A stretch of DNA of 52,583 nucleotides from a virus (IMGVR_UViG_3300047555_000022:1-52583), one strand, 5' to 3'; shown: positions 13,701 to 35,882, counted from the stretch's first letter. A program made the numbers and translations. The notes: generated by a model not told the origin, from the sequence alone.

Positions 13701-13820
13701 AAAAAAAAATACCCTTGTAGGTTTTTGTGCTTGAACAGGGTGCTTTAAAACCCAACACTAAACCTACAAAGGCAAAATATCTTAAAAGCGTTTCGGCGTT
13801 CAAACCGTAGTACAAATATA
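13701..13820 (-). ncRNA. Antirepressor leader RNA B (promoter, 5' pairing segments, branched terminator)
   Basis: TATATTTG box at 13813-13820; stem CCTTTGTAGGTTT/AAACCTACAAGGG followed by a T9 run; GTTTGAACG pairs with TGTTCAAGC. Confidence 0.7.
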
Positions 13821-13852
13821 CAAATATATTTTCACTTTCCAACTTAGAAAAT

Positions 13853-14050
13853 TTATTTTTCGACATTGTCGAAATAAATTAATTCCAATATTGTAGCAAG
13901 AACTGCGGCCATAAGTAAAGCTACAAATCCGTTAAACTCCCACTCTTTTCCGAAAAGGAAAATAATTAGTAATTCTACTATCTTCACCAGAAAGATAGAA
14001 ACAAAAGGGATTGAAAACCCAATTATTGCTTTTTTGATTTTTTCTGTCAT
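13853..14050 (-). CDS. Small membrane protein (2 TM)
   Basis: Two hydrophobic stretches. Confidence 0.6.
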   Translation of the reverse strand: MTEKIKKAIIGFSIPFVSIFLVKIVELLIIFLFGKEWEFNGFVALLMAAVLATILELIYFDNVEK

Positions 14051-14115
14051 AATTATTTAATTAAATTCTCCATCAAATAAGTCCTCAACCGTTCCCTGCT
14101 TCATGAATGAGATTT

Positions 14116-14130
14116 GTTAGTGGCAAGCTA
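14116..14130 (-). repeat. Cassette-end motif TAGCTTGCCACTAAC outside the main array
   Basis: Identical to the ends of cassettes 2 and 4 (26150-26164, 27688-27702); overlaps the stop codon of the Rha gene. Confidence 0.75.
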
Positions 14131-14826
14131 AGAGAATATCCTCGAATAGTTATTGACGATATAATCAAGACCTTTCTTAGTGATTACGATTTTCTTGACT
14201 TTCATCTCTTTTTGACCTCGTGTTATAGTTTCAAAGAAAGTTCTGGCAAATCCTTGCTCTTCTACATTTCGAGTTGATGATGTGCCTTTGCTCGAATCTT
14301 TCATAGCCCAACCAATTTCTTTGAGTTTTGAACTAAGATTATTTCTACCTACGTTGATGATGTCGGAAACCGTGTCCAAGGTGTAAACTGTTGAATTGTC
14401 AATAACTCGGTCAAACGCTTCTACTTTCGGGGTTTGTTCAAGAACTTTTGCTTCGGCAAGTTGTTTGGCTTCTTCTGAAACTACTAACGCTTTGAGTGCT
14501 GAAACAAAATCATGTGGCAAAACTAAAACATTTTGTTGTGCTTTTTTCATTTCTGACCAGTCGTCAATTATTTTCATTCTTAGTGAAATCGAATAGCCAC
14601 TTGCAAGGCATAATGATAACCTTTCGGTGAGAAGAATTTCGGAATCATAGCCACGATTGTCTTTAATTACTTGAAAAGAATCATGGTTCAGAGTTGAATC
14701 ATCTTTTTCTAATTCAAAAAGCATATTTCTAATATCTCTAAGAACGTTTGAATGCTCTTTTCCTGTCTTCTCGGCAATTTGCTTACTCGACATCTTTTGA
14801 GTTGTACTTTTTACAATTTCTTGCAT
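14128..14826 (-). CDS. Antirepressor-family protein: Rha N-domain + KilAC/ANT C-domain
   Basis: MSSKQIAEKTGKEHSNVLRDIRNM (Rha) and PKVEAFDRVID...ITKKGLDYI (KilAC). Confidence 0.85.
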   Translation of the reverse strand: MQEIVKSTTQKMSSKQIAEKTGKEHSNVLRDIRNMLFELEKDDSTLNHDSFQVIKDNRGYDSEILLTERLSLCLASGYSISLRMKIIDDWSEMKKAQQNVLVLPHDFVSALKALVVSEEAKQLAEAKVLEQTPKVEAFDRVIDNSTVYTLDTVSDIINVGRNNLSSKLKEIGWAMKDSSKGTSSTRNVEEQGFARTFFETITRGQKEMKVKKIVITKKGLDYIVNNYSRIFS

Positions 14827-14837
14827 TTCTTAAAACA

Positions 14838-14951
14838 AAAAAGAGGAGTGTTTTATGTAGCTCTGAAAGGGTAGATTTGAAACCCAACTACAAAAAACAA
14901 ACTCCTCAATATCTTAAAATCTTTTCGGTTTCAGTCCGTACTACAAATATA
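14838..14951 (-). ncRNA. Antirepressor leader RNA C
   Basis: TATATTTG box; stem GAGGAGT...ACTCCTC followed by a T run; CTGAAA pairs with TTTCAG and AGATTT with AAATCT. Confidence 0.65.
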
Positions 14952-15016
14952 CAAAACAATTCGTTATTAGCAAGCAATTGGCGACAATTAATTAGCGAAG
15001 CTGTTAAGGCTTGTAA

Positions 15017-15083
15017 CTCCAACTCAACAATTGCGTAAAGTTCACCAAAAAGACCTCACCTTTGTCTTTGTGGGCTGTTGGAA
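15017..15083 (-). repeat. Degenerate attC-like site
   Basis: TTCCAAC...GTTGGAG just after a stop codon; shares GGTGAGGTCTTTT with the site at 15453-15520. Confidence 0.4.
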
Positions 15084-15088
15084 GTGGC

Positions 15089-15289
15089 TTATTCTATGAT
15101 AGACCAGTTGTGGTCAAAACCTTTACTTTCTCTCGAATCCCAATACATAGTTTCATTAAGAGCTATGTTATTTTCGTCTAAAAGTTGCCCATTTTCTTTG
15201 CTTCTATGTAAGTATTCATAAGGTGTAAAAAAAATATGCCTAACTTTCCCACCTTTATTTAATTCTTGTTTTGCTTCGTATCGTGTCAT
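15089..15289 (-). CDS. Hypothetical protein
   Basis: Probable start MTRYEAK, coupled to the upstream stop. Confidence 0.55.
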   Translation of the reverse strand: MTRYEAKQELNKGGKVRHIFFTPYEYLHRSKENGQLLDENNIALNETMYWDSRESKGFDHNWSIIE

Positions 15290-15507
15290 TAGTCTAAATA
15301 TCCAAATACTTTCAATGTTGAAGGCTCGCAAAGTATCGCATTTTCAGAATATTCCGTCGGAAATTCAAAATCACCTTGCTTTTTAAAAACGGTTGCAAGA
15401 TAAACAAATTTACTCGGCGACATCTTATCAGCGAAAGTTTTTAAACCCTTGTCTCCAACGAAAGCAAGAGCGGAAAAGATTGCCGAAAAGACCTCACCAT
15501 CGCCCAT
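15289..15507 (-). CDS. Hypothetical protein starting inside an attC-like site
   Basis: ORF track; reads through the GTT at 15459. Confidence 0.4.
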   Translation of the reverse strand: MGDGEVFSAIFSALAFVGDKGLKTFADKMSPSKFVYLATVFKKQGDFEFPTEYSENAILCEPSTLKVFGYLD

Positions 15508-15520
15508 TATTCAGTTATCG
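15453..15520 (-). repeat. attC-like site
   Basis: CGATAAC (contains the upstream TAA stop) ... imperfect arms AATGGGCG/CGCTCTT ... GTTGGAG. Confidence 0.45.
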
Positions 15521-15760
15521 CTGCGGACATTCTTCTTTACTTTTATAAAGTCTATCAAAATTAATCCATCCTTGTTCTATTTTTGCTTTCTTATTCACTT
15601 CATCATTTTCTAATACTTTTACTTGAATAGGGAAATAAATAATACTCGGTGTCCAATAAATATTTCCTACTTCTATATTCAAAGTGTCTTTCGACAATTC
15701 ATTAGCGACTTGGCTCATAGTTTTTCTTAGTTTGCAGTTCTCAAATTTACTCGGCGACAT
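15515..15760 (-). CDS. Hypothetical protein
   Basis: ORF track. Confidence 0.55.
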   Translation of the reverse strand: MSPSKFENCKLRKTMSQVANELSKDTLNIEVGNIYWTPSIIYFPIQVKVLENDEVNKKAKIEQGWINFDRLYKSKEECPQR

Positions 15761-16005
15761 TATCCAATTTCTTGCCTAATTTTCACGTATTCTGAAAACA
15801 TTTCTTTCGGTGTTTTTCTTTCTGCATTTGAAAGACTGTTGCAATACCAGTCGGCAAAATCAAACATATCTTGTGCCGAAAATTTGATTTCATCATAATT
15901 AACAAATTTCTCAAAAAATAGCATTTCAAAGGCTTGCTTCATTCCTTCTTTTGTTGCCAAATTCTTTGTAAAGGCTTCGTTTTCGGCTTCTAATATTTCA
16001 TTCAT
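15760..16005 (-). CDS. Hypothetical protein
   Basis: ORF track. Confidence 0.6.
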   Translation of the reverse strand: MNEILEAENEAFTKNLATKEGMKQAFEMLFFEKFVNYDEIKFSAQDMFDFADWYCNSLSNAERKTPKEMFSEYVKIRQEIG

Positions 16006-16057
16006 ATTTTTGTTAGGTTTGATTACTCGACATTGTGTCGAGTAATAGTCGTGAAAG

Positions 16058-16120
16058 CGACAACTATTGAAAATATTTTTTCAATTTCTCGGATAGATTA
16101 TTTTCACTACTTTGTTAGCG
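16058..16120 (-). repeat. attC-like site
   Basis: CGCTAAC, arms TGAAAATA/TATTTTCA, then GTTGTCGCT, which complements the downstream cassette end AGCGATAAC (15514-15522). Confidence 0.45.
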
Positions 16121-16293
16121 TTGATAGGAGTGTTTCCTATCATTTCACGAAGTAATATCTCATTCTGTGGGCGGCTTGATTCTTTCAAATTGGTTAATTG
16201 ACGATTGATTGCTGCGTTGAACCTGTCGGCAAGCTGTTCTATGTATTCAGCCTTTATTTTCCCTGTCATTTTCTCTATTTCCATACTATTCAA
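16081..16293 (-). CDS. Hypothetical protein
   Basis: ORF track. Confidence 0.5.
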   Translation of the reverse strand: MNSMEIEKMTGKIKAEYIEQLADRFNAAINRQLTNLKESSRPQNEILLREMIGNTPINANKVVKIIYPRN

Positions 16294-16926
16294 AATTTAT
16301 TGGTTTGCGACAAAAAATGTAAACTATTGCGACTAAAAACACGATTACCGCTTTTCGGGTTTCGCCCGATAAAGCTAAATATGTAAACTTAGACACAAGT
16401 AGAACAGTTAGTATCACAAACAAGGGGTTATTTTTTAAATATCTTATCATTATCAAGAATTTTTAAAGTTCTTTCACAGTTTTTTATCAAAAGAAAATCT
16501 AATTTAGTTTTATTTTTTTTGTGTGAAAGTTCTTGTAACTGTTTTTCTAAACTCTCTTTCATGTTAGTAGTTATACAATGTTGGCAACTTAACTCAGAGT
16601 TAGCGACACAGAAAATCCTAAAGGAAAATATTGAGTTTTCCAATTTAGTGTGTCGCTGACGATAAAAACAAAGTTGTATAACTTTCGCCCTTTCGTTTCA
16701 CGTGTTTCACCTACTAATAATTAAAGTGAAAATTGGCTTTCTTTAAGGCTTATTAGACCCCCTAAACATCGGCTTCGCCATTACAGTACCGTGCAACCCC
16801 TGTCGCTGTATGCCAGTTGCTATTTTCATTTCATACGGCACGCATAGGCAAGATACGAAACTATTCTATTTTCACTATTTCAAAGCTATTTTACAAAATA
16901 GGAACACTTTTGAGATAACAGGGCAA

Positions 16927-17091
16927 TAAAAAACCCCAAACAAATTAATGCTTGGAGTTTTGTAATAGTTCTCCGTAGAACGATTTGTTTTGCCGACGAG
17001 AATACGGAGATATGGTTTACTTTTTTTGAGTTCAATTTCTTTCTATGCTACCCGTCGGCAAACGTTCTGCATTAATTGTAAGACAAACTTA
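16927..17091 (-). promoter_or_regulatory. Leftward promoter with a structured attenuator-like leader
   Basis: TAAGTTTG box; three 5' segments complementary to downstream segments; ends in a hairpin plus T run. Confidence 0.6.
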
Positions 17092-17276
17092 CAACAAAAT
17101 TGCGAAACTTCAAAACAACTAATGAAAAATATTTACTTTTTACAATTTTTCTCTAAATTAGAGATAGACCCCCAATTGTCTTTTTCCATGTCCTTAGTAA
17201 ATTATTTAAAATAGTTTGTTTTTGCAAATATATTCATAATTTTGCATAATATATAATTAACAAAAAAACAATTACT

Positions 17277-17444
17277 ATGAAATTTCCAGCGGAATACATT
17301 GCAGAAAAATTAAATTCAGAGGGAAAATTGCCTAAAACGGCACGTTCTTATACCCGAAATATAGTATATTCTGTGCTAAATGGCAGAAGTAAGGACGAAA
17401 ACGTTATTCAAAAAATCAAAGACCTTGAAAGTAAATTAGCGTAG
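17277..17444 (+). CDS. Small Cro-like HTH protein (55 aa, not in the ORF track)
   Basis: MKFPAEYIAEKL...YTRNIVYSVLNGRSKD; first gene of the rightward operon, after a TAATTTTG box. Confidence 0.55.
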   Translation: MKFPAEYIAEKLNSEGKLPKTARSYTRNIVYSVLNGRSKDENVIQKIKDLESKLA

Positions 17445-17512
17445 AAATACGTATTGATATTTACTAATTGTGAAATAGTGAAAATATTTTTTTATTTAAA
17501 CATTGTTTAGAA

Positions 17513-18175
17513 ATGAATTATATTGATTTAATAAATAATTTTTGGGACGAAGCTCCTAATATAAAAGGGTATAAGCCTCAATATAGCTGCTTGTACTTTG
17601 GGATAATTGATTCTATTAATAGAAACTTTTGGAAAGAAACATCTATTGAGTATGATAGAATTATTTCAAAAACAGGCATGGATAAACGAATGTATTTAGA
17701 AGCACGTGAGTGGTTAAGTACAAATGGATTTATTGAATTTACATCGGGTAAAAATAACTATTCCCCTGCAAAGTACAGGGTACAAAATTGCACCGCTACT
17801 GTACCCTCTGACGTACCTCTGATGTACCTCAATAGTACCACTACTGTACCCTCTGACGTACCCATTATAAAAGAAGACAATAAACAAGATACAAATAAAC
17901 AAATAAACAAAAAAGAGAAAACAAAAAATGTTTTCACCCCCCCCACCATTTTAGAAGTTGAAAACTATTTTTTCGAGAATGGATATAAACGTGAAGCAGG
18001 AAGTAAGGCTTATAATTATTATGCTATTGCTAATTGGAAAGATAGTAAAGGAAATGGCGTAAAAAACTGGAAACAGAAAATGCACGCCGTTTGGTTTAAA
18101 GACGAACATAAGATGATGATAGTACAACCTTCAAATAGACCGACAATAAATTATGGCAGGTATCACATTGAATAA
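17513..18175 (+). CDS. Replication initiator protein
   Basis: N-terminal wHTH-like region, internal iterons, C-terminal FTPPTILEV...YY...W...KNWK motif; upstream of dnaB. Confidence 0.75.
   Translation: MNYIDLINNFWDEAPNIKGYKPQYSCLYFGIIDSINRNFWKETSIEYDRIISKTGMDKRMYLEAREWLSTNGFIEFTSGKNNYSPAKYRVQNCTATVPSDVPLMYLNSTTTVPSDVPIIKEDNKQDTNKQINKKEKTKNVFTPPTILEVENYFFENGYKREAGSKAYNYYAIANWKDSKGNGVKNWKQKMHAVWFKDEHKMMIVQPSNRPTINYGRYHIE
17773..17930 (+). other. Putative replication origin (GTACC iterons plus A-rich tract) inside the initiator gene
   Basis: GTACC at 17801, 17813, 17824, 17835, 17846 and 17858 (11-12 bp spacing); CTACTGTACCCTCTGACGTACC occurs twice; an A-rich run follows. Confidence 0.7.
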
Positions 18176-18494
18176 AGACATTCCAGCAGGGCAGCCACTT
18201 TGGGAAGGGAGTAAATTAAAATCAACAGGGTTTACTTACCTAAACAAAGAAGAAATAAGTGTTCAAAAGTTTTACGCAAGCTATTTGATTTACTATGATT
18301 TATTTTCAAAATATAGTCAAGAAATTATCGAATGTTACCTTGATGGATTGATTGAAAAGAAAATAGTATTGATGCCGTCTAATGAATTATTTTCAGAAAT
18401 ACCCGAATTACAGAAACTATGCAAACTCATACGAAAACTGATATTACTCGAAGCCGCAGCATTTCAGATAGACTACTTGCTAAATACTCAATAG
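18153..18494 (+). CDS. Hypothetical protein
   Basis: ORF between initiator and helicase. Confidence 0.5.
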   Translation: MAGITLNKDIPAGQPLWEGSKLKSTGFTYLNKEEISVQKFYASYLIYYDLFSKYSQEIIECYLDGLIEKKIVLMPSNELFSEIPELQKLCKLIRKLILLEAAAFQIDYLLNTQ

Positions 18495-19804
18495 AGCCAC
18501 CAAACAACGTTGAATCAGAATCTGATTTTTTAAAAGGTCTTATTGAGCATAAAGATATTATTGAATCATTGAAGCTATCAAATAATGTTCGTGATATATT
18601 TTACACGGAAACAGGTTCTAAGGTTTATGATTTAATAGTGTCGCTTTATGATAGAGGGGCTTTAACAATAAATGTTTTAATAATTGAACTTCAAAAAATT
18701 GGGCTAAGAAAAAAAGTAATGGAGTTGTACCCAGAATTATTGTTAGACCGAAAATTTATAAACCTTGAAGTATTAAAAGAGACATTTCGAGCATTGTCAG
18801 ACCTTACTAATCAACGTTTAGCATTAAATGCAATTTTAGGCTCAATAGATGATTTGGACAATGGAAATGTTGAAGGTGTTGTTGAACGTGCTGAGAATGT
18901 AGTTGAAGCACTTAAAAATAATAACCTTGATATTATTGATTATGGCATTGCTAACCACATGAATAAGGCAATAGAGCGAATCAATATAATGACTGAAAAT
19001 CCTATTGGATTATTCCCTAAGTCTGGTCTTAATTCATTGAATGGCTTAATTCCATATTGGTATGATTCAGATATTATTTTAATAGGCGGTCGCCCAGGAA
19101 GCGGTAAGACCATTTGCGGACTAAAACATTCAATTGAAGCAGCAGTACAAGGTTTTGCAGTTGGGTATATTAGCTTAGAAATGCCAGCAACTTCGTTGAT
19201 TATGCGAATGATAAGCACCTATTCATTTATTCCTTACAAACGAATCAAAGAGGGAATTATACACGAACACGAAAAAGAAAGGTTTAATCAATCAGTCGAA
19301 TCAGTTAAGGCTTTGCCGATTTTCTTTTATGATAGCTTCCAAAGAGACATTAAAGACATAACTCGATGGATGCGAATAATGGCAAAGGAAAAAGGCGTAA
19401 AAATGTTTGTCATTGACTACATACAGCTAATTACTGATTCAACTGTAAGCACAGACGAATATTCACAAATTACAGCAGTTTCAAAAAAAGTCAAACAAAT
19501 TCAAATGGAATTGGCTGTTCCAATTATTGAACTTGCCCAGTTAAACCGTGAAGTTGAAGGAACAACGAGCAAAAGACCATCAACAAAAAACCTTCGTGGT
19601 TCGGGTCAATTAGAACAAGATGCAAGTGTAATTATTATGCTTCATCGTTCAGATTTTTATGGCTTTGAAGAAGCTAAAAAAACAAATGCGTTCTATGAAG
19701 CTGAAAACACGATAGAGTATATTATTCAAAAAAACCGTGATGGTGGTATTGATTCTGTACTTCTCCACTGTGAACCAGCTTTTAATTTAATCAAAGACCT
19801 ATGA
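18419..19804 (+). CDS. dnaB: DnaB-like replicative helicase
   Basis: GGRPGSGKT, SLEM, IDYIQL, QLNR, LRGSGQLEQDA and KNRDG motifs. Confidence 0.95.
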   Translation: MQTHTKTDITRSRSISDRLLAKYSIEPPNNVESESDFLKGLIEHKDIIESLKLSNNVRDIFYTETGSKVYDLIVSLYDRGALTINVLIIELQKIGLRKKVMELYPELLLDRKFINLEVLKETFRALSDLTNQRLALNAILGSIDDLDNGNVEGVVERAENVVEALKNNNLDIIDYGIANHMNKAIERINIMTENPIGLFPKSGLNSLNGLIPYWYDSDIILIGGRPGSGKTICGLKHSIEAAVQGFAVGYISLEMPATSLIMRMISTYSFIPYKRIKEGIIHEHEKERFNQSVESVKALPIFFYDSFQRDIKDITRWMRIMAKEKGVKMFVIDYIQLITDSTVSTDEYSQITAVSKKVKQIQMELAVPIIELAQLNREVEGTTSKRPSTKNLRGSGQLEQDASVIIMLHRSDFYGFEEAKKTNAFYEAENTIEYIIQKNRDGGIDSVLLHCEPAFNLIKDL

Positions 19805-25170: not shown

Positions 25171-25256
25171 CGAAGGTATTTAAGAAGGACGGCTGTGAAC
25201 AAACGTGGCGTACGCTAACCAACTGTCTGCCGTCTTTCTGAAATACAATGTTAGTG
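25165..25256 (+). repeat. attC-like site 2
   Basis: CGATAAC; arms GTATTTAAGAAGGACGGC/GCCGTCTTTCTGAAATAC; GTTAGTG. Confidence 0.8.
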
Positions 25257-25301
25257 GCTGGCTTTTTTGTCAGATGTGCTTGGAAATACGAAATAACTTT
25301 G

Positions 25302-25421
25302 TATATTTGCATACGGTTTCAACGCCAAAAATGCTTTAAGATATTTTACCTTTGTAGGTTTAGTCGTTGGGTTTTAAGCAACCCTGTTGAAGCGATGAAA
25401 ACCTACAAAGGTATTTTTTTT
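25302..25421 (+). ncRNA. Antirepressor leader RNA A
   Basis: TATATTTG box; 15-bp stem TACCTTTGTAGGTTT/AAACCTACAAAGGTA followed by T8; GTTTCAACG pairs with TGTTGAAGC. Confidence 0.7.
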
Positions 25422-25432
25422 GTAATACCAAA

Positions 25433-26152
25433 ATGGAATTAATCAAAGTAACAACTACCGAAAAAAGTAACACAGTGTCTGCAAGAGAATTGTATGAGTT
25501 TTTAGAAGTGAAAACTCAATTCACAAAATGGTGTGAAAGAATGTTTGAATATGGATTTGAGGAAAACAAGGACTATTTATTGGTTAGTCAAAAAAGACTA
25601 ACCAATAATCCAAAGAATCCTTTCGCAACAGAATCAGACTACGCTCTCACGCTTGACACAGCAAAAGAAATATCAATGCTCCAACGTTCTGAAAAAGGTA
25701 AGCAAGCAAGGCAATATTTTCTCGAATGTGAAAAACAACTTAAAGGAAAAACTCCATCATACCAAATTGAGGACAAAATACAACGTGCAAAGGTTTGGAT
25801 AGAAGAAGAAGAAAATAGACTGCTATTGCAAGAAAAGAACGAGAAACTACAATTTAGGTCAGACTTTGTGGATGTTTGTTTCGATACGAATGGAATGTTT
25901 TCAATGGAAGAAACCGCAAAGATTTTTAAATTGCCTTTTGGAAGAAACGAAATGATGAAGCAACTAAGAGATAAAGGCATATTGACAAAAGAATCAAATA
26001 CTCCTACTCAAAAGTACGTTTCAAATGGATATTTCAAAGTAGTTGAAACTATGGTAGAAAATGGTGCTTTCAAAAAATTAGTTTCAACTACCTACGCAAC
26101 GCAAAAAGGAATTGGATATATTCACAAATTGTTCAAGAACGAACTTGTTTAG
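25433..26152 (+). CDS. Antirepressor-family protein: AntA/AntB + KilAC/ANT (cassette 2)
   Basis: VSARELYEFLEV... N-domain; GRNEMMKQLRDKGIL...PTQKYV..GYF...TQKG C-domain. Confidence 0.85.
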   Translation: MELIKVTTTEKSNTVSARELYEFLEVKTQFTKWCERMFEYGFEENKDYLLVSQKRLTNNPKNPFATESDYALTLDTAKEISMLQRSEKGKQARQYFLECEKQLKGKTPSYQIEDKIQRAKVWIEEEENRLLLQEKNEKLQFRSDFVDVCFDTNGMFSMEETAKIFKLPFGRNEMMKQLRDKGILTKESNTPTQKYVSNGYFKVVETMVENGAFKKLVSTTYATQKGIGYIHKLFKNELV

Positions 26153-26157
26153 CTTGC

Positions 26158-26354
26158 CACTAACGAACAGGGCTTTGCGGTCGTTTGGGAATTTGAAAAA
26201 CGTCCGATTGGAACTGCTGCTGAATAAAATTACTAATGATTAAAATACTTACAAATGCACAATAAAGAACGTCAAGCCGAAACAGAAGTTGATAGCGAAC
26301 AAATGCCCATTGATACAACGTCAAGCCCAAATGCCGCAAAACCCAATGTTGTAC
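26158..26354 (+). repeat. attC-like site 3
   Basis: CACTAAC; arms GGGCTTTGCGG(T)CGTTTGGG/CCCAAATGCCGCAAAACCC; GTTGTAC. Confidence 0.8.
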
Positions 26355-26545
26355 GCTGCTTTTGTATGGTCTGCGGTAATGAATTTCAAGGTGAAGAACC
26401 TAAAATGTGTTGTAGTGGTAGAGATTGTGGATGTATGGGAATGCCTATCGACCCTGTCGTTTGTTCTGATGAATGTTATAATAATTTACCAATGTTTAAA
26501 AACAGAAATGATGAAAAACAAAAAGTCGTATTGGATGAAAAGTAA
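26255..26545 (+). CDS. Cys-rich small protein (cassette 3); starts within site 3
   Basis: CMVC, CCSGRDCGC and CSDEC motifs. Confidence 0.65.
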   Translation: MHNKERQAETEVDSEQMPIDTTSSPNAAKPNVVRCFCMVCGNEFQGEEPKMCCSGRDCGCMGMPIDPVVCSDECYNNLPMFKNRNDEKQKVVLDEK

Positions 26546-26678
26546 AGAAGGCAATGTCGCAAGTGTAACTTTTGAAGGAAGTAGAAAGCCGTCAAAAAAA
26601 ACAGTTGAAGCATTAAGCACAATGATTGATTTGGCTTTTCATAAACTTTCAAAGGAAAGTAAGCTGTCCGCTAAGTAG
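26508..26678 (+). CDS. Small basic hypothetical protein (cassette 3)
   Basis: 3' part of ORF 26289..26678, from MMKNKK. Confidence 0.5.
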   Translation: MMKNKKSYWMKSKEGNVASVTFEGSRKPSKKTVEALSTMIDLAFHKLSKESKLSAK

Positions 26679-26679
26679 C

Positions 26680-26772
26680 GTACAACGAAGGTATTTAAGA
26701 AGGACGGCAGGGAGTGAACTTTGCGAAACGCCAACCAACTGTCTGCCGTCTTTCTGAAATACTATGTTGGTG
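26680..26772 (+). repeat. attC-like site 4 (close paralogue of site 2)
   Basis: GTACAAC; same arms as site 2; GTTGGTG. Confidence 0.8.
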
Positions 26773-26820
26773 GCTGGCTATATTTTTGTTCCATGTTCTT
26801 GGAAATACCAAATAACTTTG

Positions 26821-26937
26821 TATATTTGTGCATGGTTTCGCAGCCAAAAGAAAAATAAGACATTTAGGCGTTGTTCTGTTAGGATTGGGTTATTTTTTCA
26901 CCCTTGCGAAGTCCAAAACAGAACAATGCCTTTTTTT
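26821..26937 (+). ncRNA. Antirepressor leader RNA D
   Basis: TATATTTG box; stem AGGCGTTGTTCTGTT/AACAGAACAATGCCT followed by a T run; TTCGCAG pairs with TTGCGAA and GAAAAA with TTTTTC. Confidence 0.7.
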
Positions 26938-26946
26938 GTAAACAAA

Positions 26947-27690
26947 ATGCAACATATTGAAATTTTCAAGTACAATGAAACCCCAATTGAGTTTGAGGTA
27001 ATCAATGGAGAAGTTTTTGCAAATGCAACAATCATGTGTAAAGCCTTTGAAAAAAGACCCACAAAATGGTTAGAGTTAGAATCTACAAAACGATACATTG
27101 AGGCATTAAAAGTGAAGTCCTCAAATAGTACATCACTAATTGAGGTTAGAAAAGGAAACTCAACAGAATTTTCACAAGGAACTTGGATTCACGAGAAGTT
27201 GATTTTGAAATTAGCAACATGGTTAGATGTTAATTTCGAACTATGGTGCGATGAAAAAGTTACTGAATTATTAAAAAATGGGAAGGTTGAATTGAAACCC
27301 AAAACGCAAATTGAAATTTTGTTAGAAAGTGTTCAAATGTTAGCAAGCATTGAACAAAAGCAAAATGACATGGATTTGAGAATAACGGCAATTGAGCAAA
27401 CAAATCAACTTGCCTTAGCCGAGTTGAATCATATTGAAAGGAGTACGGAGGAAGTTCCCGAAATTGGCATAAGATTGAAAATTAATCAAATAGTAAGAGC
27501 CTATTCGGAAAAAACAGGAATTGCATATCAAGATATTTGGCGGTCAATGTATTCAAAGATGTTATACGCATATCGCTTCAATCCGAATGCCTATAAGAAA
27601 TTGCATGACAAAGAAACCAAGTTAGATATAATCGAAAGGGAAAATCAACTCGATAATCTCTTTGCTATTGTTTCAAAGGAACTTGTTTAG
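26947..27690 (+). CDS. KilA-N domain + ORF6C-like C-domain protein (cassette 4)
   Basis: NATIMCKAFEKRPTKWL...QGTWIHEKL...ATWL..NFELWCD. True start is MQHIEIF at 26947. Confidence 0.85.
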   Translation: MQHIEIFKYNETPIEFEVINGEVFANATIMCKAFEKRPTKWLELESTKRYIEALKVKSSNSTSLIEVRKGNSTEFSQGTWIHEKLILKLATWLDVNFELWCDEKVTELLKNGKVELKPKTQIEILLESVQMLASIEQKQNDMDLRITAIEQTNQLALAELNHIERSTEEVPEIGIRLKINQIVRAYSEKTGIAYQDIWRSMYSKMLYAYRFNPNAYKKLHDKETKLDIIERENQLDNLFAIVSKELV

Positions 27691-28653: not shown

Positions 28654-29427
28654 ATGAAAGTAATTAATCAAGTCAATCAGACCACTGATTATGGTAAATT
28701 TCAAAGTTTGAACGGTAATAGAAATGTTAATGCTCTTCATGTGAGACGCTTACAAGAATCTTTTGCCAAATCTTATTTACTAAGTCCAATTTTAGTAAAT
28801 GATAAGTTTGAGATTATTGATGGACAGCATCGCTTTGAAGCTGCCAAAAAATTAAACCTGCCAATAAACTTTATTTCTATCCCAAACTATGGATTGGAGC
28901 AAGTTCAGTTGCTAAACACAAATATGAAAAATTGGAAATCAGAAGATTATTTACAAGGGTTTTGCGATTTAAAATATCCTGAATATTTAAAGTTTAGAAA
29001 TTTTATGAGACAATTTCCAAGTTTTTTGTTTCAAGGTTGCGATATTTTGTTAAATGATACATCAAACGGTTCTGATAAGCAACAGAATAGCAAGGAACTG
29101 ATAACTAAAACAAATAAGGCAGGCGATTATAATAAAAATTTATTTAAAGAGGGCGAATTGAAAATTCCCAATTATGAAAAAAGTGTTGCCAATGCTAATA
29201 ATTTGATGAGATTAAAAGATTATTATGAAGGGTACAATCGAACAATTTTTATAAGAACAATGGTCGTACTTTTCAAACATGAAAATTTTGATTTTGAGGT
29301 ATTTATTTCAAAGGTGAAGTTAAATCCAACATCATTAAAACCATGTGTTTCGGTAACAGATACAAAATTATTGATTGAGGAAATTTACAATTATCGAAAT
29401 CAAAACAAAGTGTCTTTGAGGTATTAG
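28654..29427 (+). CDS. ParB/Srx-like N-terminal domain protein (cassette 6)
   Basis: GNRNVN...PILVN...IIDGQHRFEA motif. Confidence 0.75.
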   Translation: MKVINQVNQTTDYGKFQSLNGNRNVNALHVRRLQESFAKSYLLSPILVNDKFEIIDGQHRFEAAKKLNLPINFISIPNYGLEQVQLLNTNMKNWKSEDYLQGFCDLKYPEYLKFRNFMRQFPSFLFQGCDILLNDTSNGSDKQQNSKELITKTNKAGDYNKNLFKEGELKIPNYEKSVANANNLMRLKDYYEGYNRTIFIRTMVVLFKHENFDFEVFISKVKLNPTSLKPCVSVTDTKLLIEEIYNYRNQNKVSLRY

Positions 29428-30106: not shown

Positions 30107-30112
30107 GGTTGC

Positions 30113-30243: not shown

Positions 30244-30304
30244 GCTGCCGATTTTGGTTGCACAAATATTTTAATCTTTTTTTTGGAAGTATGAAAAACG
30301 TTAT

Positions 30305-30512
30305 TACATTTGTGTATCCAATTCGCATAGCGGTCGCTACCGCTCAAATCATAGCGGTTTTTTTGTGCCTTATAGTTTTTAATGATACCGATGGTAAAAC
30401 ACGGTGTCGCAACTACCGTAATTGTTTGAACACAATTGCCCTATGCGGGTTGGATAACGGAAAGAGCGGCACCGTGTTTTGTCGTTTACAAGCATTAAAA
30501 TCCAATAGCGTA
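30305..30512 (+). ncRNA. c4-antisense-like leader RNA (cassette 8)
   Basis: TACATTTG box; TATCCAATTCGCATAG pairs with CTATGCGGGTTGGATA; stem AAAACACGGTGTCGC/GCGGCACCGTGTTTT; second ATCCAA target next to ATG 30513. Confidence 0.6.
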
Positions 30513-30800
30513 ATGCAAACAAATCAAACCATCGCTTTATCTTCCATGAGTGAAGATGCGAACCTCCCAACCGCCTTGCAAGAGGCAATCAACGAGTTTT
30601 TCTGTTATAACGGCACACCTGCCGATATTGACGAAAAGCTATTTTCCATGCTCGAATCCGCCACCGCAGGCGTTGAAGAAGTCGGCTTAGATGCCAAAGA
30701 AGTTTTAGGCTATCTTTTCTTCTACAAAACCGACAAAGTCCTTTTCAATCAGCTACATTCTTTCACCGCTAAAACTAACGTAGAGCTATGCAAGAACTAA
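30513..30800 (+). CDS. Small protein upstream of an antirepressor (icd-like position)
   Basis: MQTNQTIAL start after the leader; overlaps the antirepressor start. Confidence 0.55.
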   Translation: MQTNQTIALSSMSEDANLPTALQEAINEFFCYNGTPADIDEKLFSMLESATAGVEEVGLDAKEVLGYLFFYKTDKVLFNQLHSFTAKTNVELCKN

Positions 30801-31459
30801 TTAAAGTTGCGACTAATTCGCAAGGCGAAAGGGTCGTAAGTGCAAGAGAACTTTATGAATTTTTGGGAATGAATAATGCCGTTTTTGCTCGTTGGTCAAA
30901 AAAGAACATTGAAGAAAACCAATTTGCAATAGAAAATGAAGACTGGGCTATGCTCAACATCATGTTGAGCAATGGGAATCAAACCAAAGATTACGCTTTA
31001 AGTTTAGATTTTTCAAAGCGTATTTCAATGATGGCACGAACAGAAAAAGGCGAACAGTTGCGAAATTATTTTATTGAGTGTGAAAAGGCATTGAAGGCAA
31101 CCGTACCAGTAGCGATTTCAATAGAAGATGCTTTGATACAGCAACTACTCGTTACAAAGGCTATTCGCATAGAGCAAGAGCAAATAAGAGCAAAGCAAGT
31201 TGAACAAGATGCACGAATATTGCAAATCGAAGCCAAGACCACCACACGCCCAGAATATTTTACAGTCATGGGTTATGCTATTTTGCAAGGGGCAAGGGTC
31301 GGTTTATCATTAGCGGCTCAAATAGGCAAAAAAGCCAAAACTATATGCAGTACAAAAGGCTATCACATTGACAAAATCCACGACCCACGTTTTGGACAGG
31401 TCGGGTGCTACCCTGCCGATGTACTCAAAGAAGTATTCAATACAACTACTTTTTCGTAG
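30788..31459 (+). CDS. Antirepressor-family protein: AntA/AntB + distinct C-domain (cassette 8)
   Basis: VSARELYEFLG...KGEQLRNYFIECEK; C-domain RPEYFTVMGYA...DPRFGQV..YP. Confidence 0.85.
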   Translation: MQELIKVATNSQGERVVSARELYEFLGMNNAVFARWSKKNIEENQFAIENEDWAMLNIMLSNGNQTKDYALSLDFSKRISMMARTEKGEQLRNYFIECEKALKATVPVAISIEDALIQQLLVTKAIRIEQEQIRAKQVEQDARILQIEAKTTTRPEYFTVMGYAILQGARVGLSLAAQIGKKAKTICSTKGYHIDKIHDPRFGQVGCYPADVLKEVFNTTTFS

Positions 31460-31527
31460 CGTTGTCAAGTCGGGGCAGTCGTTGGCTGTCCCACTTTTCA
31501 AAGTGTCGAAGTGGTTTTTTCGGTTGC

Positions 31528-31600
31528 CACTAACACGCAGATTGACGCAATTGAAAAACATAACTCTTTGATAATTAAAGAGTTATGTTTGCGTATTATG
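31528..31600 (+). repeat. Terminal degenerate attC-like site 9 with a perfect inner hairpin
   Basis: CACTAAC; AAACATAACTCTTT/AAAGAGTTATGTTT; no closing GTT. Confidence 0.5.
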
Positions 31601-31785
31601 TATTGTCATTTTTGTATTTTATTTGCATTTGTTGCATTATTCACAGAACTTTTGATAAATATGTAAAATAAATACATATAAATTTGTATGTTAAATATAT
31701 TGGTTGTAAATTTGTTCCAAGCAAATGAGAAACGGTTCTCATTACATCCCGCCCAACTCTTCGAGGCGTATTTCGAGAGGATAAT

Positions 31786-32169
31786 ATGACTACTCAATCT
31801 CAAATAGAAAAAATAGTATTGTCAGCAACTTCTTCAAGAATTGAAGAAAATTGTACAAAAGCTGGCGTTTTTGTAAAAAGAGAAATCTATTCTCTTCCAT
31901 ATGATATGTGGAAAGATATAGATGGTCGCAGATTATGCGAAATTACCATTTTTATAGAGGGAGTGCATTCAACTTCTCATTTTATGTCTGGACCAAGATT
32001 TGAGGGGCTTGGGTCTGAGGATGGTATGCGAGACGGTGGAGAAATGGTTACATCAATCCACAAAACGATTGGTGGCGACTTTTGCTTCTCAACAGCAATT
32101 TATGCTACAAAAAGTGGCAAAAAGTGTGTTATTTATAAGGAAGATGATTTATTAGAATATTCTATATGA
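31786..32169 (+). CDS. Hypothetical protein
   Basis: ORF after a TAAATTTG promoter box. Confidence 0.6.
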   Translation: MTTQSQIEKIVLSATSSRIEENCTKAGVFVKREIYSLPYDMWKDIDGRRLCEITIFIEGVHSTSHFMSGPRFEGLGSEDGMRDGGEMVTSIHKTIGGDFCFSTAIYATKSGKKCVIYKEDDLLEYSI

Positions 32170-32384
32170 TTAGCGGCAAAGAACTGCGTTTGCTCAGAAA
32201 TTTATCTGGGCAAACGCAAGCCGAACTTGCAGAGAAACTCGGCAAAGGTGGATATACCCAGCAAGTGGTAGCCGCCATTGAGAACGACAAACGAAATATA
32301 GGTTTGTCGTTGCTTGGGGATTGGGCTGGGGCTTGTGGTTTTGATGTCAATATATCATTTACGAAGCAAGGTTCTACCGCCTGA
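32166..32384 (+). CDS. XRE-family HTH transcriptional regulator
   Basis: LRLLRNLSGQTQAELAEKLG...TQQVVAAIENDKR. Confidence 0.85.
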   Translation: MISGKELRLLRNLSGQTQAELAEKLGKGGYTQQVVAAIENDKRNIGLSLLGDWAGACGFDVNISFTKQGSTA

Positions 32385-32481
32385 AATTACTTTATTTTTA
32401 AAGACTTTTATTATTTCTGTTAATTCCTGTTTTCTTTTGGTTCTTTCGTACATTAAATAGTAGAAATTATTGGTTAAAAGA

Positions 32482-32664
32482 TTACTTTAAAAATGCTGAA
32501 ATATTTTCTCTAAAAACATCTCCTAATACTTCGTTACCTAAATATTCGGCTTTCTTTTTAGTTACCAATTCATGTTTTGATAAATCAACTTCATTATTTT
32601 TAAGTTTCCCCAAGATAGCAATTCTATCTTGCGAAATTTCTTTTAGATTAAATGGTTCGTTCAT
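32482..32664 (-). CDS. Small hypothetical protein on the opposite strand
   Basis: TACATTTG box upstream on the minus strand (~32706-32713). Confidence 0.45.
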   Translation of the reverse strand: MNEPFNLKEISQDRIAILGKLKNNEVDLSKHELVTKKKAEYLGNEVLGDVFRENISAFLK

Positions 32665-32718
32665 AAGGTTTGAAGGAAATTAGTGTAAAGTAAAAAATGA
32701 ATATGCAAATGTACTGAT

Positions 32719-33294
32719 ATATCGGCAAGAAGTCTTTATGAGTTTTTAGAAATAAAAGAACATTTCACTCAATGGATTGAAAGAATGTTCGATTACGGGT
32801 TTAATGAAAGTGTTGATTATCAGGCGATTAAGGAATTTATTAATCATTCAAATGGAGTTGGAGGTACTTATAAAACTGAATATGCCTTGACATTGGATAC
32901 TGCGAAAGAAATAGCAATGCTACAAAGAACCGAAAAAGGAAAACAAGCAAGGCAGTATTTTATTGAGTGTGAAAAGCAAAATAAAATGAAACCGATGTCA
33001 ATTGAGGAGATGATTATTGCAAATGCTCAAAGTATGATTGATACTAAAAAACGATTAACAAATTTGGAGGATTTTACGCATACTAAATTTGAAGAAACGT
33101 TTACTAAAATTGACGAAATTAAAGCATTGTCATCAACAAGACCTGAGTATTTTACAATAGTTGGTTATGCTTCTTATATGCGTGTCCATGTTGATAACAC
33201 AAGTGCTAAAAAGTTAGGTGCAATTGCTGCAAAACTTTGCAAAGAACGTGGATTGCCTATTGATAAAGTTCCAGATACTCGATGTCGCAAGTAA
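32719..33294 (+). pseudogene. Antirepressor (AntA/AntB + 30788-type C-domain) clipped at both ends
   Basis: In-frame ISARSLYEFLEIKEHFTQW upstream of ATG 32785 has no standard start codon; the C-domain stops at DTRCRK. Confidence 0.6.
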
Positions 33295-33329
33295 CTATTT
33301 GAGTATAAACACTTTAAAAACCAAAATAT

Positions 33330-33620
33330 ATGATAACTGAATCACAGTATTTAGAAGCAAAAATAATCATTGAAACTTACATTGAAGAAAAACGCAAACA
33401 ATTGGATATTGATGAACAATTATTGCACAATATTCTTAATGACAATATTGATTGGCATTTTTCAGGAAGAACTTTGAATGTTTTGAAAGAAAGAAATATT
33501 TCTGATTTGGCTGGAATTGTTAAACTTTATAAAGAAACAAGATTTAATAAAGTTGAAGGTTTAGGAGAAAAAACAAAAAATGAGTTAATGGGATTTTTAA
33601 GGAAATACTTATTAGATTAG
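33330..33620 (+). CDS. Protein with an RNA polymerase alpha-CTD-like domain
   Basis: FSGRTLNVLKERNISDL...KVEGLGEKTKNEL resembles the alpha-CTD pattern LSVRSxNCLK...NLGKKSLxEI. Confidence 0.7.
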   Translation: MITESQYLEAKIIIETYIEEKRKQLDIDEQLLHNILNDNIDWHFSGRTLNVLKERNISDLAGIVKLYKETRFNKVEGLGEKTKNELMGFLRKYLLD

Positions 33621-33630
33621 TTTTTCCCTT

Positions 33631-33717
33631 TTCCAACCGTCAGCATTGTGCTAATTGGTGAACGAATTGGAATGAAGAAATGAAACATCAAACTTTGACA
33701 TAATGCGTTCGTTGGAG
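33631..33717 (+). repeat. Isolated attC-like site
   Basis: TTCCAAC, 5 nt, GCATTGTG ... CATAATGC, 4 nt, GTTGGAG; lies directly after a stop codon. Confidence 0.6.
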
Positions 33718-33830
33718 GTATGAGCCTTGCTAACTACGCTTTCACGAAGTCGCAAGTAATAAGTGCGTTTAATCACATGACCATCACATAAATAAATGAT
33801 TATTTACTTTCGATTTTGATTGTTTTTGAT

Positions 33831-33930
33831 TAATTTTGATTATCAAAGTAAGTGAGAGGTCGAGAACCGCTTACCTTGGTTCGGTTGAAATACCAAACCT
33901 GCCCCAATCTCGACCATTGGGGCTTTTTTT
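33831..33930 (+). promoter_or_regulatory. Promoter plus attenuator-like leader
   Basis: TAATTTTG box; terminator GCCCCAAT/ATTGGGGC followed by T7, whose loop TCTCGACC complements upstream GGTCGAGA. Confidence 0.6.
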
Positions 33931-33938
33931 ATGCAAAT

Positions 33939-34247
33939 ATGACAACATTAGAACTACAAAAAGCTATCAGACTTCAAGAAAAAATTGAAGCAAAAAAGCA
34001 ACAACTATTTTTATTTGAGCGTTGCAAAGTAAAAAATGTAGCGTTCAAAAAAGAACGTGATGATGAGAGCGGATACGATGAAATCATACTGGAAGAAATT
34101 CCCAAAGGTGTAATAAAAAACGCTGCGATTGAATACATAAAAGCAGATTTAGCAGACCTACAAAGGCAGTTTGATTCGTTTTTGTCGCCAAAATCTGTTG
34201 AAATGAATTTTTTAGTAAATTCGCAAGAACTTGGACAAACTGCATGA
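33939..34247 (+). CDS. Hypothetical protein
   Basis: Start MTTLELQ after the leader. Confidence 0.6.
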   Translation: MTTLELQKAIRLQEKIEAKKQQLFLFERCKVKNVAFKKERDDESGYDEIILEEIPKGVIKNAAIEYIKADLADLQRQFDSFLSPKSVEMNFLVNSQELGQTA

Positions 34248-34747
34248 CCACAATTGAGCAATTTATTTTGGACAATTTTTGTCAAAAAACAAACAAGCAA
34301 ATTGCACAAGAATTAAATATACCATTGCACCAAGTTAGATTAAAAGCCTATTCATTAGGACTTTATCGAATCAGTCTTGACTATTGGACTGACGAACAAA
34401 TTACTTTTTTGAAAGAAAACTTTGAAACTATCGGAGATACCGAACTGTCTCAAATATTTCAAGAAAAGTTTCCTAAAAACAAAGTATGGACCAAAAAACA
34501 CATTGACAAAAAAAGAAAGTATCTAAATCTGCATCGAACACCCGAACAAATATTGTTGATTAATAAACGAAATATTGATGCAGGATTATATCAAAATATT
34601 GATAGACTTTCAGATAAATACATGGCTTATCGTTGCAGTAAGCAAGATAAAGAACTCCGAAAAGAGTTATTGAAAAACAAAGAATTATTAGAAGTAAAGC
34701 GTTTAACAATTAAACTAAAACGAATATGTCGGCAGAAATCGCAATGA
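34244..34747 (+). CDS. Putative DNA-binding protein
   Basis: Repeated helical units (TNKQIAQELN; WTDEQITFLKENF); basic. Confidence 0.5.
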   Translation: MTTIEQFILDNFCQKTNKQIAQELNIPLHQVRLKAYSLGLYRISLDYWTDEQITFLKENFETIGDTELSQIFQEKFPKNKVWTKKHIDKKRKYLNLHRTPEQILLINKRNIDAGLYQNIDRLSDKYMAYRCSKQDKELRKELLKNKELLEVKRLTIKLKRICRQKSQ

Positions 34748-34962
34748 TAGGGCAGTTAGTTGTGCCAAAAGGAGTAGTTAATTTGCAAACAGTTAGCGAA
34801 AATTTGATGGAAATGATGATTCAAGTTAAAGGTAATCCACGCTTAACTGAGCAAGCAAACTCCATGTGCCAAATTGCCGACCGAGTGGTAAATGTGGCTA
34901 AAACACAGGTGCAACAGGCGAATATGATAATTGAGCTTAATAGAATGAAGCAAGGATTATGA
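34726..34962 (+). CDS. Hypothetical protein
   Basis: Coupled ORF. Confidence 0.55.
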   Translation: MSAEIAMIGQLVVPKGVVNLQTVSENLMEMMIQVKGNPRLTEQANSMCQIADRVVNVAKTQVQQANMIIELNRMKQGL

Positions 34963-35225
34963 CAGGGCTAAAACGACAAGCAATATTACGACAAGCCAAT
35001 GAGGAATTTTTCGAGTTAGAGTTTCCACTTGGCTTTATTTCGCCTGACCTAATGGCTACAATGACCAGACCTATTCAACGATTACAGGGCTATTGGTTGG
35101 TTTACAATGTTTTGCACTTCAAAAATCGTGTGCATAGTATTTATCACAATTATAGGGAATTTAAGCAAGCTGTTGAAAAAGAATGTGGTTGTGAAATGAT
35201 ACGAATAAAGCCTACTAAGAAATGA
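34959..35225 (+). CDS. Hypothetical protein
   Basis: Coupled ORF. Confidence 0.55.
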   Translation: MTGLKRQAILRQANEEFFELEFPLGFISPDLMATMTRPIQRLQGYWLVYNVLHFKNRVHSIYHNYREFKQAVEKECGCEMIRIKPTKK

Positions 35226-35437
35226 TTGATAAAATCGAAATAACATTAGATGATTCGGGCTTGTTCGTTGTAAATATTGGAGATATTCAAATTACACACG
35301 TAGATTCACCACAAAAGGCTGGTGGGATTGTTGGACATTATGCCAAGAAATTAGCCTATTTTCCGAAAGGAATTTGGGAAGGTTCGGCTAATCCTATCAC
35401 TTTTGAGGAATTTAAGAAGCAGAATAGGATAAAATGA
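35222..35437 (+). CDS. Hypothetical protein
   Basis: Coupled ORF. Confidence 0.55.
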   Translation: MIDKIEITLDDSGLFVVNIGDIQITHVDSPQKAGGIVGHYAKKLAYFPKGIWEGSANPITFEEFKKQNRIK

Positions 35438-35730
35438 AATTCATAAAAACATACTATGACGAAAAAGGAATAGTTAGAATTGATGATGATTCTTTTGAAG
35501 ATTTGAAATCCTGCTTAGATGAAAAGTTTTTTGAGTATTTTGGCAAAAACAGCAGCGAAGAATTTATAAAAAACTCGATTGAATTTTTGAAAAACTATGC
35601 AAAAGAATACTGGATTGACAATCCAAAGGCTTTTGGACTTGAATTTGAAGGGAATAATGGCGAACTATTGAACTTTCAATTTTCTAACCCTGTGAGAAAA
35701 ATATCAATGAGCAATAATGGCGTGAAGTAA
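35434..35730 (+). CDS. Hypothetical protein
   Basis: Coupled ORF. Confidence 0.55.
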   Translation: MKFIKTYYDEKGIVRIDDDSFEDLKSCLDEKFFEYFGKNSSEEFIKNSIEFLKNYAKEYWIDNPKAFGLEFEGNNGELLNFQFSNPVRKISMSNNGVK

Positions 35731-35762
35731 ATTTTCTAAGTTGGAAAGTGAAAATATATTTG

Positions 35763-35882
35763 TATATTTGCATACGGTTTGAAACGCCAAAAGCAAAAAT
35801 AAGACATTCAAGCAAGGCTTGGCTAAATCGGAGGTTCTTTTTGCACCTGTTTCAACGATGAAAGCCAAGCCTTGCTTTTTTT
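35763..35882 (+). ncRNA. Antirepressor leader RNA E
   Basis: TATATTTG box; stem AAGCAAGGCTTGGCT/AGCCAAGCCTTGCTT followed by a T run; TTGAAACG pairs with TGTTTCAA and GCAAAAA with TTTTTGC. Confidence 0.7.

Follow-up and report, generated by a model that had tools for sequence, protein, structure and literature searches.

The phage genome IMGVR_UViG_3300047555_000022:1-52583 raises the question of why one and the same RNA leader should stand ahead of several regulator genes, each time with a different pairing code. The whole stretch, referred to as the window, is catalogued in IMG/VR as a complete virus record; it has 52,583 bp and carries direct terminal repeats. It contains exactly five homologous leaders of about 105 nt, designated s1 to s5, each located ahead of a gene of the AntA, Rha or KilA-N type. 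A first-pass annotation, made from the sequence alone, had placed five leaders with a common layout at these sites, and reading, a covariance model and RNAfold all confirmed them. The antirepressor-type genes it had expected downstream were recovered behind the five leaders as AntA, Rha, KilA-N and KilAC genes. Judged from the sequences, the leaders represent an undescribed, well-supported structured RNA family of Bacteroidota phages that is specific to antirepressor-type genes; the Bacteroidota setting, also proposed earlier, is supported.

A covariance model (R1) was built from the five window leaders and the window was searched with filters off. Over the whole window only the five leaders were found, with scores of 78.6–110 bits, while the next best match reached 18 bits (E 0.33). 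The exact promoter box TTTGTATATTTG has five matches in the window, all at leaders. With up to one mismatch the number of matches is seven compared to 1.5 expected, and seven were reached in 0 of 100 shuffles. The box contains TAnnTTTG, which we take to be the consensus of the Bacteroidota -7 promoter motif.

RNAfold yielded an identical architecture for the five leaders, consisting of a small 5' hairpin (P0) and a long hairpin, followed by a U run. P0 is a 5'-terminal 3-bp GG(U)/(G)CC hairpin, the 7–9-nt loop of which is segment a. On its 3' side follow an unpaired CCRAAA, the single-stranded segment b and UAAGAYAUU. The long hairpin comprises, in this order, P1 (~15 bp), a 1 x 2 purine internal loop, P1b (~5 bp) and P2 (GGGU/ACCC). 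Segment b' is the 3' side of the P2 loop, and segment a' is a 6-nt bulge between P2 and P1b. A run of U6–9 is located directly 3' of the hairpin, and the ATG lies 9–13 nt past the model match in the five window leaders. Their folding z-scores range from -3.0 to -4.0, with equally good folds in 0–1 of 200 shuffles. The leaders and their parts are located as follows.

13813..13824 (-), s1 promoter box TTTGTATATTTG, containing TAnnTTTG
13842-13815 (-), promoter-like region TTGGAA-16-TATATT at s1, from a motif scan
13704..13808 (-), leader s1, covariance-model match of 110.2 bits, U run continuing to 13701
13785..13803 (-), s1 tail with a TTGAACG (P0 loop), CCGAAAC and b GCTTT
13776..13784 (-), s1 conserved linker TAAGATATT from b to the terminator stem
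13710..13774 (-), s1 terminator-like hairpin of -28.6 kcal/mol with P1 (15 bp), A/AA internal loop, P1b (5 bp) and P2 (4 bp, GGGU/ACCC)
13731..13746 (-), s1 interior with b' AAAGC (3' part of the P2 loop), ACCC and a' TGTTCAA (bulge)
14944..14955 (-), s2 promoter box
14837..14939 (-), leader s2, 82.8 bits
14917-14934 (-), s2 tail, a CTGAAA and b AGATTT
14863-14878 (-), s2 interior, b' AAATCT and a' TTTCAG
25298..25309 (+), s3 promoter box
25313..25419 (+), leader s3, 108.2 bits
25318-25336 (+), s3 tail, a TTCAACG and b TGCTT
25376-25391 (+), s3 interior, b' AAGCA and a' TGTTGAA
26817..26828 (+), s4 promoter box
26832..26937 (+), leader s4, 106.8 bits
26837-26855 (+), s4 tail, a TTCGCAG and b GAAAAA
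26894-26910 (+), s4 interior, b' TTTTTC and a' TTGCGAA
35759..35770 (+), s5 promoter box
35774..35882 (+), leader s5, 79.4 bits
35779-35799 (+), s5 tail, a TTGAAACG and b GCAAAAA
35838-35855 (+), s5 interior, b' TTTTTGC and a' TGTTTCAA

All ten segment pairs listed in the first-pass annotation are present in these leaders, some of the a:a' pairings ending in one G-U, and RNAalifold on a plain MAFFT alignment arrives at a:a' and b:b' in its consensus.

Relatives were sought by DNA patterns and by alignment of AntA/KilAC homologues, and each candidate was then scored with the covariance model. This resulted in 12 further distinct copies in 12 other phage or metagenome records, giving 17 copies in 13 records in all. 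The single-copy relatives are L178, L331, L443, L397, L396, L503, L505, L508 and L489, and the copy of L239 is located on a contig of a metagenome-assembled genome of the Chitinophagales. L404 (record G009; also G014) carries two leaders that differ in code, one combining a TTGGTAG and b GCAAAA, the other a TTCGACA and b AGATTT; they precede an AntA gene and a Rha-like/KilAC gene. L330, L416/L224 and L470/L512/L515 were left out as duplicates, presumed from identical scores in overlapping records without alignment. Most of the other records are fragments with an estimated completeness of 5–56%. Pfam was applied to 16 of the 17 first open reading frames (ORFs) behind the leaders: 11 pass the cut-offs for AntA, Rha, KilA-N or ANT, three show weak Rha matches and two none. 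The first ORF behind L508, outside this count, runs off the contig and is Rha-like by eye.

The 17 copies were aligned by the covariance model (alignment A7). In this alignment the nested helices are paired in 95.6% of the cells and show double changes in 23 of 27 pairs, and their covariation score was reached by 0 of 500 shuffles. This count leans toward structure because A7 was fitted to the nested structure. The contacts a:a' and b:b', in contrast, are outside the covariance model, so that A7 was not fitted to them. Despite six rows misregistered by indels, a:a' is paired to 87.9% and b:b' to 71.8%. The covariation score of these tail contacts is 0.568 compared to 0.224 for shuffles, none of 500 reaching it, and drops to 0.06–0.28 when the partner is slid by 1–3 columns. 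Double compensatory changes were observed in 9 of 12 tail pairs. When read from its inner end, a:a' has seven contiguous pairs in 15 copies and six in the other two, whereas only 17 of 272 non-cognate combinations reach seven pairs with equal offset freedom. 

Duplex energies provide an additional means to compare cognate and non-cognate partners. Mean values are -7.06 versus -2.03 kcal/mol for segment a, -5.10 versus -2.60 kcal/mol for segment b and -12.16 versus -4.63 kcal/mol for both together, and the cognate mean was reached in 0 of 200,000 permutations. Both contacts are kept in 17 of 17 copies, with 15 different a sequences among them, which have in common an outer UU and an inner G-U or A-U and leave a free core of 4–5 nt. 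By reading the listed segments, about 10 different b sequences were counted. Segments a and b assort independently of each other: the a sequence of s1 recurs in L503 next to a different b, and its b sequence recurs in L508 next to a different a. In 12 copies the innermost pair of a:a' is G-U, and since G-U pairs are used, the complementarity is strand-specific.

Because the pairings hold with other sequences in the 12 further copies, the covariation is far beyond chance and not an artefact of five recent duplicates. Taken together, covariation, cognate energies and independently assorting a and b codes lead us to conclude that the two tail contacts a:a' and b:b' are real and selected. This is in line with the earlier claim that the 5' segments covary with the bulge and the loop, for which covariation in a wider alignment had been set as a check beforehand and turned out to be significant. 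The pairing matrix also bears out that each copy has its own a/b combination. A comparison of a/b with P1 divergence in close pairs is biased, the pairs having been picked by low P1 distance and the b columns being misregistered, and yields no conclusion on diversifying selection.

As to function, the leaders are likely transcription attenuators, a claim that is confined to this point and does not extend to the direction of the effect, the input signal or action in trans. A stable hairpin with a U run stands between promoter and start codon. In 17 of 17 leaders a TAnnTTTG-like promoter box ends 4–5 nt before the leader and an ATG is found 1–14 nt past the model match. The terminator-like hairpins have energies of -25 to -35 kcal/mol in the 17 copies, with the U run directly after them. 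The whole hairpin measures 20–26 bp. P1 has 13–15 bp, is continuous in 13 copies and turns over completely in sequence. The helices P1, P1b and P2 and the linker hardly vary in length. The linker between b and P1 is UAAGAYAUU in 16 copies. Folding of the entire leader as a nested ensemble leaves a, b, a' and b' unpaired (P 0.65–1.0). A simple terminator scan of the window did not list the leader hairpins because its loop limit is 3–8 nt.

The best explanation, which we hold with slightly less than even confidence, is an attenuator in which two processes would be in kinetic or steric competition, pairing of the nascent tail with the interior and completion of the terminator. In the nascent RNA, b:b' and a:a' would form before the 3' arm of P1 emerges. 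The formed contacts would enclose the 5' arm of P1 in a closed loop, tied by the ~9-nt linker to the top of a stack with a height of ~24 bp. Winding of the 15-bp P1, above all closing of its base beside the U run, would then be hindered and the polymerase would read on into the ant gene. If the tail were kept from pairing, the hairpin would be completed and the transcript would end as a ~105-nt RNA. The tail might be held back in trans by terminated copies of the leader itself, by a protein or ligand that sits on conserved unpaired bases, or by temperature. When transcripts are truncated directly behind a', a:a' is part of the minimum-energy fold of 14 of the 17 copies, with b:b' as well in five; RNAfold cannot model b:b' together with P2. 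An extended version, in which these tethered terminators would be addressable attenuators and the released ~105-nt leaders code-specific trans-repressors, giving five independent feedback loops with self and non-self told apart by the a/b code, appears unlikely.

Several observations weigh against the proposed attenuator. The two tail contacts involve the P2 loop and the bulge and extend at most to the first P1b pair and the third P0 pair, and no antiterminator helix that shares bases with a terminator arm was found. Since the contacts have no bases in common with the P1 arms, the leader is not a classical antiterminator, and any antitermination must be kinetic or steric. The first-pass suggestion that cis pairing may antiterminate fits the truncated folds. 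The steric or topological block of terminator completion is inferred. The tail could also dock on the finished hairpin if the conserved A-rich internal loop acted as a hinge, in which case the contacts would stabilise the terminator or a compact fold. The full-length minimum-energy fold holds the terminator in every window leader. Contact b:b' is short and A/U-rich, and only five of the 17 segment-b rows have the cognate as the best partner. The attenuator also leaves unexplained the conserved CCRAAA, AAGAYAUU, UUG and RAA and the near-invariant P2 (GGGU/ACCC). The conserved unpaired bases comprise AYGG, CCRAAA, AAGAYAUU, UUG before P2 and RAA opposite the P1/P1b junction, and in P2 the G-C pairs are kept in 15–16 of 17 copies at three positions. 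Such invariant unpaired bases, together with P2, point to a putative further partner, be it a protein, a ligand or a tertiary contact.

Among the alternatives, a self-addressed immunity RNA similar to c4, CI or IsrK has a rather low probability in our judgement. The terminated ~105-nt leader would build up and, using either a'/b' or a/b, pair in trans with nascent leaders of the same code, block their cis pairing and force termination. Feedback repression of each ant paralogue would thereby run through a separate channel, and related phages would be heteroimmune if their codes differed. The terminated leader is indeed built like a small RNA, with a 5' hairpin, a single-stranded stretch and a terminator, and all four segments are exposed in the nested ensemble. 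Segment a lies in a hairpin loop and a' in a bulge, resembling fast-pairing antisense systems, which present their segments in loops or bulges. The 15 different a sequences and the independent assortment of a and b fit this explanation. Precedents are the processed P4 leader RNA, which causes termination by pairing with seqA on its 5' side, and short IsrK, which acts in trans on its own read-through transcript (PMC4825925). For segment a, no other partner beats the cognate in 14 of the 17 rows, and for a and b summed the cognate is the best partner for 5 of 5 window leaders and 2 of 2 in L404. However, no second target was found near the start codons or elsewhere in the window, and the b codes cross-react, s3 b pairing with the s1 b' loop at -7.8 kcal/mol compared to -4.7 kcal/mol with its own b'. 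The margin is also small for s1 (-11.1 on its own interior versus -9.3 on that of s2). The 20 non-cognate pairs within the window average -4.5 kcal/mol (hand-summed from the matrix) against -4.63 kcal/mol for all non-cognate pairs. The codes differ, but nothing points to selection for mutual avoidance, because the non-cognate pairs within the window are no weaker than overall. The orthogonal switches envisaged in the first-pass annotation are supported for a and only weakly for b. Covarying helices with different sequences would be expected of any old paralogues of a cis-acting fold. Neither an integrase nor a CI-type repressor was found with PHROGs at E 1e-5 on the 77 ORFs of the window, and an immunity role is for this reason not obvious.

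It is also doubtful that the leaders are pseudoknotted elements in which a:a', b:b', P1b and P2 would form a compact fold and a bound small molecule, protein or Ant-type protein would set the P1 terminator, the codes being covarying helices. Covarying helices, near-invariant unpaired bases and a terminator as expression platform constitute a riboswitch-like pattern; the hardly varying P2 suggests sequence-specific recognition, and the near-constant lengths of helices and linker agree with it. No Rfam family matched in the whole window at the gathering score, though, and at E up to 10 in 25200-27050 (s3 and s4) no family matched the leaders and C4 was not among the matches; the Rfam search named in the first-pass annotation thus assigned the leaders to no riboswitch class. 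The regulated genes encode DNA-binding regulators, as opposed to metabolic enzymes or transporters, no ligand suggests itself, and 17 sequences are too few to define a pocket. RNase III-type processing sites in early transcripts of T7 have a ~20-bp stem with an internal loop. P1 and P1b together have ~20 bp with a conserved asymmetric internal loop, and P0 is located at the predicted 5' end, as the box ends so close to the leader. A stability or processing element, with a hairpin that terminates constitutively or never and a folded 5' end that either guards the ant mRNA from 5' decay or is itself an RNase III-type site, is nevertheless quite improbable: it leaves unexplained both the upkeep of two tail contacts through many compensatory changes and the constant U6–9 directly after the stem. 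Hardly credible is a feature at the DNA level or chance, i.e. a recently duplicated promoter cassette or recombination site with complementarity devoid of RNA function. Flanks repeated upstream (43 nt identical for s1/s5; ~70 nt for s3/s4) and one related population with an identical leader but a strongly different ORF start, as at a mosaic joint, would be consistent with it. It is contradicted by the covariation counts, with compensatory double changes in the nested as well as the tail pairs given above, and by the strand-specific complementarity.

Small-RNA control of antirepressor-type genes is known from a few phages of Proteobacteria (P1/P7, P4, P22-type), and to our knowledge nothing comparable has been described for phages of Bacteroidota, the gene regulation of which is poorly known. 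In P1, c4 is a separate RNA of 77 nt, processed by RNase P to a stable small RNA, and its a2/b2 target pair is located downstream at the operon start, over the ribosome site. Citron and Schuster are said to have reported in 1990 that phage-specific compensatory differences between P1 and P7 give specificity. The leaders resemble c4 (P1/P7, RF01695) in the control of an antirepressor operon and in a structured RNA of the same transcript with a' and b' complementary to upstream a and b. The upstream a1/b1-type pair of c4 has its counterpart in 17 of 17 leaders (a and b 5' of b' and a'), a likeness of layout and not homology. In contrast to c4, the leaders have no RF01695 match, carry a' in the bulge and b' in the loop of the terminator hairpin itself instead of in a separate RNA, belong to a different host phylum and occur in five copies per genome here. 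When each a..b was searched in the window with up to one mismatch in a, the own tail and scattered single matches were found, none of them a downstream a2/b2-type target at an ant start. The analogy to c4 and CI drawn in the first-pass annotation therefore holds for the layout, but not for an RF01695 match or a downstream target in the window. The motifs 'c4 antisense RNA' and 'c4-a1b1' are listed in a table (PMC2864571), and C4 is described as controlling the antirepressor, ant (PMC8201110).

The P4 CI RNA originates from the untranslated leader of its operon and pairs with upstream seqA and downstream seqC, leading to premature termination (PMC4825925). In common with the phage leaders, the regulator is part of the operon's own leader and has its complementary sequence on its 5' side. 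It differs in that P4 needs the downstream seqC, for which no such site was found in the phage window, that CI is made by processing and that P4 has one contact compared to two in these leaders. For IsrK of the Salmonella Gifsy-1 prophage, two products of a single promoter are described, a short RNA that ends by termination and a read-through mRNA on which the short RNA acts in trans (PMC4825925). This pair of a terminated leader and a read-through form is a precedent for the leaders, whereas IsrK activates translation of the long form and no paralogous set with different codes is described there. By analogy, the leaders may work like systems of the c4, CI or IsrK type but do not belong to them.

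In T-box leaders and in the attenuation of pT181 and pIP501, the choice of the terminator is set by short, sequence-programmable contacts with a leader loop or bulge. The partner is a separate molecule there (a tRNA or an antisense RNA), and the contact either stabilises or blocks a classical antiterminator that has bases in common with the terminator. In the phage leaders, both partners are part of one leader and neither overlaps the terminator arms. The leaders are a new variant of leader or riboregulator control. A literature search, with thin coverage of subscription journals, found no description of this leader.

The leader is a compact RNA of ~105 nt with two independently variable contacts, rewritten at least 15 times for a and about 10 times for b with the fold kept. 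If the contacts decide termination, it would provide a ready-made library of programmable transcription switches and a case of antitermination without sequence overlap. If they build a pocket for a ligand or protein, it would be a new class of regulatory RNA tied to phage regulators. In either case, it offers a way to approach the role of AntA, Rha and KilA genes, which are numerous in such phages.

Among loci that encode AntA/KilAC relatives the leader is rare: it was detected at one of 80 loci each from viruses and from genomes, and at two of 80 from metagenomes, both with one and the same sequence. A second covariance model (R2), built from all 17 copies, found no new member in 198 further loci (100 + 98). 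The genome-locus matches L262 and L246 were judged false by eye, L262 (37 bits) having neither a U run nor a gene behind it. Loose DNA patterns in IMG/VR gave chance matches, with 0 of 80 model-scored loci true and 0 of 16 in a second pattern. A strict pattern had 13 matches in 401 sampled Flavobacteriaceae genomes, similar to the reversed-pattern control and none with a hairpin. The whole-genome search mode for RNA models missed the known L239 copy in its own genome and was given no weight.

Unrelated leaders before AntA/KilAC homologues, L144 (2330-2495), L319 and L337, also have a 5' segment whose complement is found in the apical loop of a terminator-like hairpin by the start codon. The pairs are ATGGTGG/CCACCAT in L144, TTGGCAGA/TCTGCCAA in L319, with the 5' segment in a hairpin loop, and GTCGTGAGC/GTTCACGAC in L337. 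They are the clearest cases among 28 leaders with a hairpin and T5 from 229 upstream regions, in a crude scan that scores known members poorly. Pairing of a tail with a terminator loop may be a wider theme before ant genes.

The flanks 5' of the promoter boxes are repeated as well, so that the duplicated unit exceeds the leader. The 43 nt upstream of the s1 box (13825-13867, -) are identical to the 43 nt before s5 (35716-35758, +), and ~70 nt are similar between the flanks of s3 and s4 (25240-25297; 26760-26816), including TTGGAAATAC. An apparent backward joint of 1490 nt in a metagenome alignment is not a rearrangement, but stems from this repeated s3/s4 flank and the boundary of the stretch. 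Contigs of run X7 match s3 without difference at 25290-25387, but differ by 26 letters and five gaps at the beginning of the ant ORF (25436-25584). These low-depth contigs hint at a possible mosaic joint at the border of leader and gene. Four metagenome DNA runs showed no difference in the covered parts of s3 and s4, and no compensatory changes at the population level.

The metagenome runs containing this phage stretch are labelled as freshwater or aquatic, and no RNA run was among the 15 listed. Likeness to named phages is limited to ~230 nt of the Erf gene, common to Cellulophaga phage phi19:1 and Olleya phage Harreka_1; the leader was looked for in both and none was found. The PHROGs results indicate a tailed phage with structural and packaging genes on the minus strand and a replication and recombination block on the plus strand (DnaB-like helicase, SSB, Erf, NinB, RNase H and methyltransferase). 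They include seven antirepressor-type genes. A tRNA search of the window found none. The genes behind the leaders (Pfam/PHROGs domain calls) and the ParB-like gene are located as follows.

12987..13691 (-), AntA-domain gene behind s1
14128..14826 (-), Rha + KilAC (ANT) gene behind s2
25433..26152 (+), AntA + KilAC gene behind s3
26947..27690 (+), KilA-N gene behind s4, starting at the ATG 9 nt past the covariance-model match
35892..36095 (+), 67-aa ORF behind s5, no Pfam match
36106..36810 (+), AntA + KilAC gene, second gene behind s5
28654-29427 (+), ParB-like gene (PHROGs)

With a ParB-like gene and neither integrase nor CI-type repressor, a virulent and a plasmid-like prophage lifestyle are both possible, which bears on the meaning of 'antirepressor' here. 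The 67-aa ORF resembles the N-termini (…LVEQINIFRK…) of Rha-like/KilAC proteins of 221-248 aa behind the leaders L443, L397, L489 and L404b, and it could be such a gene in truncated or split form, standing before the AntA/KilAC gene at 36106-36810. Two further AntA-like genes have no leader. That at 32785-33291 (+) lacks the N-terminus, its AntA-like reading extending upstream without a start codon, and that at 30788-31456 (+) overlaps the end of the ORF at 30291-30797 and looks translationally coupled.

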